Positions 12,194 to 13,731 are shown, counted from the stretch's first letter. The stretch is 31,227 nt of DNA from an uncultured Acidimicrobiales bacterium (GCA_964616935.1 CAZTVJ010000570.1:1-31227); one strand, 5' to 3'. Made by a program: numbers and translations. The notes: generated by a model not told the origin, from the letters alone.

Positions 12194-12592
12194 CTAGCTG
12201 GTGGCTTTGCGGGCCGGTGCCCGCGTGGCGGGGGCCTTTCGGGCCGGCGCCCGCTTGGCCGTTGCCTTCTTGGCGGGGGCCTTTCGGGCCGGCGCCCGCT
12301 TGGCCGTTGCCTTCTTGGCCGGCGCCTTCTTGGCCGGCGCCTTCTTGGCGGGTGCCCGCTTGGCGGTCGCCTTCTTGGCCGGCGCCTTCTTGGCCGGCGC
12401 CCGCTTGGCGGGTGCCCGCTTGGCGGTCGCCTTCTTCGCGGGGGCCTTCTTGGCCGGTGCCCGCTTGGCGGGGGCCTTCTTGGCCGGTGCCCGCTTGGCG
12501 GTCGCCTTCTTGGCCGGCGCCGCCTTCCGGGCGGGTGCTGCCTTCTTGGCCGGTGCTGCCTTCTTGGCAGTCACCTTCTTGGTAGTGGCCAC
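12194..12592 (-). CDS. Stand-alone histone H1-like Lys/Ala/Pro repeat protein (PAKK repeats)
   Basis: 132 aa: MATT-KKVTA, 3 hexapeptides (K/R)KAAPA, then 21 pentapeptides ([20 protein letters not shown] types). 49 Lys+Arg and no Asp/Glu. Own SD (AAGGAGAGAGGAG) before GTG. Confidence 0.85.
12197..12580. repeat. Coding tandem repeat, 15-bp (and 18-bp) units
   Basis: Units such as GCCTTCTTGGCCGGC and GCCCGCTTGGCGG repeat through the H1-like ORF. Confidence 0.9.
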
Positions 12593-12620
12593 GGTGCTCC
12601 TCTCTCCTTGCGGTCCGGTA

Positions 12621-12905
12621 CTAGCGCTTCGGGTTCAGCTCACCCTTGAGGGTGGAGCTGGGGGTGAACTTCATGGCGGTCGAAGCCGGCACGTGCACCG
12701 TCTTCGTGCGGTCCTGCGGGTTGGCCACCGTGCGGGCGGCCCGCTTGACGGTGCTGAACTTCCCGAAGCCCGGCCACGCAACGTCGTCGCCATTCTTGGC
12801 GGACGCCGTCACCTCGCTGAAGAAGGCGTCGAGCACCTTCTCGGCGTTCGCCTGGGTCGTGTCAGCCGCCTTGGCCACCGCTGCGAGCAACTCGGCCTTG
12901 GTCAT
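12621..12905 (-). CDS. hup: HU family DNA-binding protein (94 aa)
   Basis: [60 protein letters not shown]; TAG stop. Confidence 0.95.
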
Positions 12906-13086
12906 GTGTTGTCGATACCTCCTGGTACACGGAGCGAAACTCAGCGCACATCAGAACTTTTCCGCAGGCCAAGGTCAAGCATTTCGGTCATCACTCGATC
13001 GTTGTACTTGCAACCTTCTGCCCGAGCACTGACGCCGCCCGGCAAACAGACTGGCCGCCGCGACGCTCGTCGCGCACACTGTGGAC

Positions 13087-13731
13087 ATGGATCCACCGAC
13101 CTGGCCGTTGTTCGGGCTCCGCATCGTGACACCCCGTGTCGTCCTGCGCTACGCGGACGACGAGGACGTCCTGGCGCTCGCCGAGCTCGCGACGCACGGC
13201 GTCCACGATCCGCGGTCGATGCCCTTCACGATCCCCTGGACCGATGTCGAGCCTCCCGCCCAGCAACGCAACTCGGTGCAGTGGTACTGGCGCCAGCGCG
13301 CCGAGTGGACCGTCGATCGCTGGAACCTGTCGTTCGCCACGGTGGTCGACGACGCGGTCGTCGGGATGCAGGGCGTCGAGGCCGAGCACTTCCCGGTGCT
13401 GCGCCAAGCCGCCACGGGCTCCTGGCTGGGCCGCGCCCACCAGGGTCAGGGCATCGGCAAGGAGATGCGGGAGGCGGTGCTCCACTTCGCCTTCGCCGGC
13501 CTCTGCGCCGAGTTCGCTCTGTCGGGTGCCTTCCACGACAACGCTCCCTCGCTCGGCGTCTCGAGGTCGCTGGGGTATGAGGAGGAAGGGACCCGGCGGG
13601 TGCTGCGGCGCGACCAACCCGACCGGATCATCGGGCTGAGGCTCTCACGGTCCACGTGGGAGCAGCACCGTCGCGACGACATCCAGATCGAGGGCCTCGA
13701 CGACTGCCTCAACCTCTTCGGCCTCACGTGA
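13087..13731 (+). CDS. GNAT acyltransferase, RimJ/RimL-type, resembling M. tuberculosis Rv0802c
   Basis: WPLFGLRIVTPRVVLR, MPFTIPWT, TGSWLGRAHQGQGIGKEMREAVLHFAF, AFHDNAPSLGVSRSLGY. CACACT 6 nt before ATG 13087. Confidence 0.85.
   Translation: MDPPTWPLFGLRIVTPRVVLRYADDEDVLALAELATHGVHDPRSMPFTIPWTDVEPPAQQRNSVQWYWRQRAEWTVDRWNLSFATVVDDAVVGMQGVEAEHFPVLRQAATGSWLGRAHQGQGIGKEMREAVLHFAFAGLCAEFALSGAFHDNAPSLGVSRSLGYEEEGTRRVLRRDQPDRIIGLRLSRSTWEQHRRDDIQIEGLDDCLNLFGLT

Follow-up and report, generated by a model that had tools for sequence, protein, structure and literature searches.

A divergent Rv0802c-family acyltransferase gene beside a split HU operon in an uncultured Acidimicrobiales bacterium: a possible accessory acylase of nucleoid proteins

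The closest described relative of the acyltransferase considered here is the GNAT Rv0802c of Mycobacterium tuberculosis which, as the papers citing the original study describe it, both succinylates and acetylates HU (Anand et al. 2021, doi 10.1099/mic.0.001058; cited in PMC10407107, PMC13445592 and PMC13010138), in agreement with what the first-pass annotation of this DNA had stated. According to one of these papers, the DNA binding of MtHU is altered by its succinylation, acetylation and phosphorylation (PMC13010138). The C-terminal extension of Rv0802c, consisting of two helices and a strand, is unique among GNATs (PMC4964394). A looser parallel is found in the eukaryotic histone acetyltransferase/histone pairs, in which a GNAT-fold writer neutralizes the lysine charge of a DNA-packaging protein; no orthology exists and no reader domain is evident, so the likeness is one of analogy only. 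A further GNAT of M. tuberculosis, Eis (Rv2416c), reportedly acetylates HU as well, according to work ascribed to Ghosh et al. in 2016, and is comparable to the present case as a proposed GNAT acylation of nucleoid-protein lysines. Eis has, however, a different GNAT architecture, that of a multi-domain hexamer, and was absent from the PDB matches obtained by phmmer with the GNAT described below, with which it has no detectable sequence relationship. The structure of Eis is mentioned in PMC12273574.

The window, the whole stretch of 31,227 nucleotides that was analysed, is contig C570 (70% G+C) of a 3.37 Mb, 90% complete metagenome-assembled genome of an uncultured Acidimicrobiales bacterium. 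The gene encoding the Rv0802c-family GNAT (13087..13731, + strand; 214 aa), which was identified through Pfam, phmmer comparison against the PDB and translation, is divergent from a gene encoding HU (12621..12905, - strand; 94 aa; Pfam PF00216), with the HU ATG at 12905 and the GNAT ATG at 13087 separated, start codon to start codon, by exactly 181 bp (12906..13086). Both the open reading frames and the gap are as the first-pass annotation had claimed, and the peptides it had quoted, WPLFGLRIVTPRVVLR and GSWLGRAHQGQGIGKEMR, both occur in the GNAT translation. The HU gene is followed by a free-standing gene for a Lys/Ala/Pro-rich 'H1-like' protein of 132 aa with PAKKA-type repeats (12194..12592, - strand; Pfam HC2). 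Family searches furthermore identified a TIGR03084 metal-binding (DinB/MDMPI-like) gene in the flank (11286..12161, - strand), which follows the co-directional Lys-rich gene after 32 nt, and, on the opposite side and outside the module, a HIT-family gene (13724..14137, - strand; putative GTG start) which is convergent with the GNAT gene. The 3′ end of the HIT gene overlaps that of the GNAT gene by 8 nt, and its longest reading frame extends to an ATG at 14371. The divergent adjoining of GNAT and HU distinguishes this locus from M. tuberculosis, where the Rv0802c gene is reportedly unlinked to hupB, the HU gene.

The GNAT matches the Pfam family Acetyltransf_3 (PF13302; e-value: 3.3e-14). In the phmmer comparison against the PDB, Rv0802c (2vzy/2vzz; e-value: 1.8e-51) aligns with residues 8-214 of the query over residues 5-211 of its 218-residue chain, with 43% identity over 207 ungapped residues, and the next PDB family follows at an e-value of 1.8e-4, so that the proposed likeness to Rv0802c is specific. 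The alignment is full-length and spans the region of the Rv0802c C-terminal extension. The two proteins share a P-loop of the form QGxGxG, which binds the acyl-CoA pyrophosphate and reads QGQGIG in the window GNAT, its glycines G122, G124 and G126 being invariant among 25 homologues, as well as the family-invariant motif-B residues D153, N154, S157 and Y166. As far as can be judged from these residues, the catalytic and CoA-binding motifs are intact. The protein is thereby predicted to be, at the family level, an Rv0802c-family acyl-CoA-dependent N-acyltransferase, which by homology is probably tetrameric and able to use both succinyl-CoA and acetyl-CoA. The nearest database cluster to the GNAT is P0001 (214 aa). 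Seven Acetyltransf_3 genes are present in the 90%-complete assembly, one of which is Rv0802c-like, and a single sirtuin gene is located, unlinked, on a different contig. The GNAT start lacks a Shine-Dalgarno sequence, with CACACT at 13075-13080, 6 nt upstream of the ATG, and this context would fit a leaderless start; an alternative in-frame GTG start is found at 13081.

Membership of Acetyltransf_3, together with the naming of homologues as 'RimJ/RimL family' (JGI annotation) and weak NCBIfam matches to RimL, AAC(6′) and ArsN1, would also suit a RimJ/RimL-type N-alpha-acetyltransferase of ribosomal or other proteins, or a small-molecule or antibiotic N-acyltransferase, and GNAT N-succinyltransferases of antibiotics do exist in Streptomyces (PMC9600172). 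The NCBIfam matches, however, amount to 17-19 bits against cut-offs of 170-250, a RimL-like PDB chain is matched with an e-value of 1.8e-4 as compared to 1.8e-51 for Rv0802c, and the flanking genes that were examined include no recognisable ribosomal-protein gene or biosynthetic cluster. We thus consider such a function very improbable.

The HU protein matches Bac_DNA_binding (PF00216; e-value: 1.1e-24) over residues 1-91 and its gene is the sole HU-family member detected in the 90%-complete assembly. A TAG stop directly follows residue 94, leaving the fold alone, with the tail not in the same polypeptide. The Lys-rich reading frame begins with a GTG 28 nt past this stop, in another frame, and is preceded by a strong Shine-Dalgarno sequence of its own (GGAGAGAGGAG, at about 12598-12608). 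Its product (A52 K37 P18 R12; pI ~12) scores 41.6 bits against Pfam HC2, for which the cut-off is 40, in a low-complexity match, and 56, 49 and 25 bits against NCBIfam models, including those for H1-like proteins and Rv3852, with cut-offs of 100, 80 and 135, respectively, these matches likewise being of low complexity. Hc2 of Chlamydia, the H1-like proteins of Burkholderiales and the Rv3852 family all resemble it in their Lys/Ala/Pro repeat composition; the likeness is compositional, all NCBIfam scores lie below cut-off, and homology is not demonstrated. A closer parallel is offered by actinobacterial HupB/MDP1/Hlp/HupS, for which a single locus likewise encodes first an HU fold and then a PAKKA-type polycation. 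In those proteins, however, the fold is fused to the tail, whereas the window carries two genes divided by a stop codon, a 28-nt spacer and a change of frame. In this comparison, the Lys-rich gene is the separately encoded counterpart of the tail that actinobacterial HupB carries at its C-terminus.

Twenty distinct genomes of the window's family and neighbouring families share the split layout. Their HU proteins measure 91-95 aa, or 103-115 aa in two that bear a short tail, the spacers span 4-47 nt, and the Lys-rich reading frames, of 36-132 aa, have separate Shine-Dalgarno sequences and starts; all three relative frames of the two genes are seen. A single frameshifted hupB, or a sequencing frameshift, was considered and ruled out on these grounds, and the description of the locus as an HU operon plus an H1-like gene is accurate. 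The split form occurs in many genera of the window's family, while the fused, classical HupB form is found in a few more distant relatives (loci L028, L040, L044, L045 and L049).

The linkage between GNAT and HU was followed through three samples, comprising 40 relatives searched for both genes, the best 80 GNAT loci on contigs from one genome per species with 6-kb flanks, and 401 genomes from 61 genera of the window's own family, for which GNAT and HU coordinates were cross-referenced, including those from a second HU search. Among the 40 relatives, 17 contain the GNAT and 37 HU, and the two are adjacent and divergent only in G001, the neighbourhood of which is that of the window (HIT / GNAT / HU / Lys-rich / TIGR03084 / PIG-L). 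HU lies within about 220 bp of the GNAT in four of the best 80 loci and 3.5 kb away in two more, belonging to two species, in which an ECF sigma / anti-sigma / kinase cluster is inserted; in one locus the Lys-rich gene alone adjoins the GNAT, and at least 52 have neither HU nor another gene of the block nearby. Of the 401 family genomes, 125 from 33 genera encode the GNAT, whereas 327 encode HU. Divergent GNAT|HU adjacency with a gap of 150-215 bp is found in 18 of the 125 GNAT-bearing genomes and in six of the 33 GNAT-bearing genera, namely in the window's own genus (g1), in one genome each of g2 (G001), g50 (G049), g66 (G065) and g21 (G122), and in 13 of 14 genomes of g69. In three further g21 genomes (G020, G089 and G150) no HU was detected at the locus, while the promoter region, Lys-rich gene and GNAT are still together, and in one of these (G089, locus L062) about the first five HU codons remain. 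In g69, the loci retrieved no longer carry the HIT gene, and TIGR03084 was not detected, while DUF429-GNAT|HU-Lys-rich remain together. The GNATs of the linked genera share 40-66% identity with that of the window and the HU proteins 49-71%. In the other GNAT-bearing genomes of the family, a distance of 45-230 kb separates GNAT and HU, unless they lie on separate contigs altogether. The linkage is a minority state that is not unique to the window's genome: it holds in 18 genomes of six genera, with three more retaining the Lys-rich gene only, and is lacking in about 100 of the 125 GNAT-bearing genomes.

Furthermore, the phyletic profiles of the two genes across the 401 genomes are not coupled, as the HU and Lys-rich bicistron is common in the absence of any GNAT. 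PIG-L, TIGR03084, Lys-rich, HU and HIT form a syntenic block which is stable across the order, with or without the GNAT, such that GNAT-HU adjacency can persist by descent alone. The HIT, HU, Lys-rich and TIGR03084 genes share one strand. In genomes that lack the GNAT or carry it at another site, HIT is the immediate upstream neighbour of HU; since the junction is closed up in these genomes, the GNAT represents a facultative antisense insert between HIT and HU.

In a GNAT tree extended by 17 further family loci, which has no outgroup, 18 of the 20 linked GNATs group together in a single region. A clade of unlinked sequences (100/99 support) is sister to, or nested among, them. The observed clustering of the 'linked' label was reached in none of 500 shuffles, which fits one ancestral insertion with vertical inheritance rather than repeated recruitment. 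The tree is thus consistent with the linked arrangement being old and inherited within a sublineage of one Acidimicrobiales family. Rv0802c groups with sequences of Streptosporangiales, Streptomyces and other Acidimicrobiales and not with the window's clade, on a weak backbone and with no outgroup; the window gene is therefore a member of the family, falling in a different subclade from Rv0802c, for which orthology is not established. An acidic adaptation of the linked GNATs to a polycationic substrate was considered and rejected, as their net charge does not differ from that of the unlinked GNATs (medians: -4 versus -5; p = 0.63).

These patterns leave room for a reading in which the synteny reflects descent and involves no functional coupling. 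The GNAT would then be a general or metabolic acyltransferase, tied to the succinyl-, methylmalonyl- or propionyl-CoA pools and directed at other proteins or at small molecules, which was inserted between HIT and HU once. The position of the GNAT away from HU in most genomes of the family, the simply empty HIT-HU junction where it is elsewhere or absent, the phylogenetic clustering of the linked state and the strong synteny of the entire block in any case all speak for this reading, as does an association with central metabolism. In 20 of the best 80 loci, forming a well-supported separate Acidimicrobiaceae clade, the GNAT gene is located 26-31 nt downstream of that for methylmalonyl-CoA mutase, and the two are fused in the proteins P0175 and P0188. 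Methylmalonyl-CoA mutase is the enzyme that makes succinyl-CoA, and the linkage fits succinyl-CoA as a hint at the donor while saying nothing about HU. Against descent alone, the mutase linkage is confined to the other subclade and informs on the donor more than on the acceptor, the sole biochemically studied member of the family, Rv0802c, acts on HU according to the citing papers, and the junction between GNAT and HU or the Lys-rich gene has outlasted both the changes in the outer flanks of g69 and the deletion of HU in g21. We regard this explanation as a substantial possibility, if short of an even chance.

A second association concerns DUF429, a predicted active nuclease of the RuvC/YqgF clade in the RNase H-like superfamily (PMC3985635), for which no sequence relative was found among solved structures. 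Among the 20 distinct loci examined in which the GNAT is linked to HU or the Lys-rich gene, 15 have a co-directional DUF429 gene 0-30 nt after the GNAT gene, while in locus L062 the matched part of DUF429 starts 122 nt past the GNAT. In-frame fusions of the two occur in Microthrixaceae and in L061/G107. The protein database contains many such GNAT-DUF429 fusions, in two groups with 74-94% and 43-45% identity to the query. No DUF429 gene was found beside the window GNAT, and the genome as a whole contains one weak match, on another contig; the G001 locus likewise lacks DUF429, and in both the GNAT 3′ end overlaps that of HIT. The associations of the GNAT with DUF429 and with the mutase equal or exceed that with HU.

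The frequency of this pairing, the fusions and the predicted nuclease activity raise the prospect that DUF429 is the true partner of the GNAT in a nucleic-acid transaction, to which the position of HU would be secondary, and that the window's own copy was deleted, orphaning the GNAT; the missing neighbour and the weak match on another contig would both be in keeping with this. However, the window and G001 retain GNAT-HU adjacency without DUF429, indicating that the GNAT was retained alone beside HU, and unlinked GNATs lack DUF429 too, which makes the pairing a facultative one. The nuclease activity of DUF429 is, moreover, a predicted one. We judge a true DUF429 partnership with only a secondary place for HU to be decidedly unlikely, and it would be compatible with, rather than exclusive of, acylation of HU.

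The divergent intergenic region holds an HU Shine-Dalgarno sequence (CCAGGAGG, 12918-12925, given on the + strand) and a -35-like box (GCTTGACC, 12973-12980, read on the - strand). A palindrome (GTTGTACTTGCAAC, 13001..13014; consensus GTTGCAnnTGCAAC) is located ~20 nt upstream of this box and ~70 bp from the GNAT start, and is conserved upstream of HU in most genomes of the family. As the -35-like GCTTGAC(C) and the palindrome are conserved upstream of HU whether or not a GNAT gene is adjacent, both elements belong to HU, and a role for the palindrome as a shared, GNAT-specific operator was rejected. Elsewhere in the genome, most near-copies of the palindrome fall within coding sequence and a single loose match, on C356, is intergenic; no palindrome regulon is therefore apparent. 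A simple scan of the intergenic region found no canonical sigma-70 promoter, and a terminator scan likewise gave nothing useful.

Our preferred reading is that the GNAT acylates HU and/or the Lys-rich protein in vivo as an accessory acylase, to which we assign a probability of roughly 0.4. It is favoured by the activity on HU, both succinylation and acetylation, of the only characterised family member, by the position of the sole Rv0802c-like gene of the genome beside its sole HU gene, by the survival of the junction across divergent genera despite the flank changes in g69 and the loss of HU in g21, and by the DNA-related hint that the usual operon partner of the linked GNATs is a predicted RNase H-like nuclease. 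The enzyme would modify lysine side chains at their epsilon-amino groups, in HU and/or in the free H1-like polycation, where acetylation would neutralize and succinylation reverse the charge. The modified proteins may then bind and compact DNA more loosely, to an extent set by the supply of acyl-CoA, and the unlinked sirtuin would be a candidate eraser of the acyl marks. In-vitro acylation of a polylysine-like substrate by the GNAT would, in our judgement, be weak evidence of its physiological substrate.

The first-pass annotation had proposed a dedicated chromatin writer-substrate module. The physical linkage on which this was based stands, while the word 'dedicated' is opposed by the minority status of the linkage, its apparent vertical inheritance from one event within a stable block, the lack of phyletic coupling, of a GNAT-specific regulatory element in the HU promoter region and of charge adaptation, and by the existence of equally strong partners. 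Since HU and the Lys-rich gene mostly occur without an adjacent GNAT in relatives, the enzyme is better viewed as an accessory modulator than as part of an obligatory dedicated system. A more elaborate version, which we consider unlikely, would see in the linked loci an ancient four-gene nucleoid cassette, composed of the DUF429 nuclease and the GNAT 'writer' facing the divergent split HU and H1-like operon across a palindromic operator, of which the window would be a reduced form that has lost the nuclease. The GNAT of such a cassette would tune the charge of a free linker-histone analogue according to the supply of succinyl- and acetyl-CoA.

The Rv0802c-type family, like its activity towards HU, is already known, while the genomic coupling of GNAT and HU, the split substrate and the partnership with DUF429 appear to be undescribed in the literature searched. 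To our knowledge, only biochemical work with the M. tuberculosis proteins has revealed the acylation of HU by Rv0802c, and we are aware of no earlier genomic-context support for a GNAT-HU relationship. With the layout present in six genera and missing from most relatives, the locus is a reasonable, though unproven, pointer to chromatin modification in bacteria. Should the link not be real, it would serve as a caution, being a minority adjacency passed on vertically in a very stable block, with DUF429 and the mutase pointing elsewhere. As the lysine-rich tail is a separate protein, the system would be easy to dissect, with fold and tail separable as substrates. If the acylation of HU and/or the Lys-rich protein holds true, nucleoid compaction in a deep-branching and uncultured class of actinobacteria would be coupled to central acyl-CoA metabolism.

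Many genera of this Acidimicrobiales family encode HU and its Lys-rich 'tail' separately, as two genes, as in the window (positions 12194-12905) and in the related loci L023-L027, L030, L032, L035, L037, L041, L047, L061, L068, L083, L103, L109 and L113. The Lys-rich gene in these split loci is preceded by a separate Shine-Dalgarno sequence, begins at a start codon of its own and is separated from the HU stop codon by 4-47 nt, with every relative frame occurring. A fused HupB-like form is found in L028, L040, L044, L045 and L049. The split arrangement either arose by fission of actinobacterial HupB or reflects the state that preceded its fusion.

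A palindrome, GTTGCAnnTGCAAC, is conserved in the HU promoter, approximately 20 nt upstream of the -35-like element GCTTGAC(C). It is located at positions 13001-13014 of the window and upstream of HU in approximately 20 loci (e.g. L021, L024, L025, L028, L030, L035 and L036), independently of whether the GNAT-encoding gene is present, and no regulon for it is apparent within the genome from which the window derives. The promoter, palindrome and Lys-rich gene are also retained in genus g21 of the same family, where the HU coding sequence itself has been deleted from the locus (L062, 5640-5830; L003, 1255-1515; L134); the HU remnant in L062 consists of only about five codons (MTKAE). The sole HU-like gene of genome G020 is located on a different contig and its product shares 37% identity, and a strong HU match is absent from the two other g21 genomes checked, G089 and G150.

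The HU operon is flanked by genes encoding PIG-L (GlcNAc deacetylase family) and TIGR03084 DinB/MDMPI-like proteins (window 10541-12161), and the synteny of these genes with the operon extends across the order. These look like a low-molecular-weight-thiol pair with no relation to protein deacylation. In two species, an insertion separates HU from the GNAT (L068, 2800-5910; L083, 2580-5880); its genes, assigned by eye from the translated ORFs, encode ECF sigma and anti-sigma factors and a Ser/Thr-kinase-like protein.

The Rv0802c-like GNAT also occurs with DUF429, a predicted RuvC/YqgF-like nuclease with an RNase H fold, either in a tight operon, where the two genes are 0-30 nt apart or the stop codon of one overlaps the start codon of the next (L130, 3862-5144; L131, L132, L134, L136, L137, L141, L142, L144, L147 and L148), or as an in-frame fusion (L061, L076, L096, L099, L100 and L104). 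The GNAT fusion is absent from the DUF429 domain combinations listed in a 2014 survey of the RNase H-like superfamily (PMC3985635). DUF429 is furthermore fused to cob(I)alamin adenosyltransferase (PF02572), NUDIX, phosphomethylpyrimidine-kinase-like and PF01934 domains (proteins P0176, P0182, P0197, P0203, P0209 and P0212), the B12-related fusion being of note because the GNAT is itself linked to methylmalonyl-CoA mutase.

This link is seen in one Acidimicrobiaceae clade, where the GNAT gene lies 26-31 nt downstream of the mutase gene in 20 loci (including L052, L054, L057, L058, L063, L065, L067, L069, L075 and L078), and in GNAT-mutase fusion proteins (P0175 and P0188). Together, the adjacency and the fusions provide a genomic hint that this GNAT family uses succinyl- or methylmalonyl-CoA.
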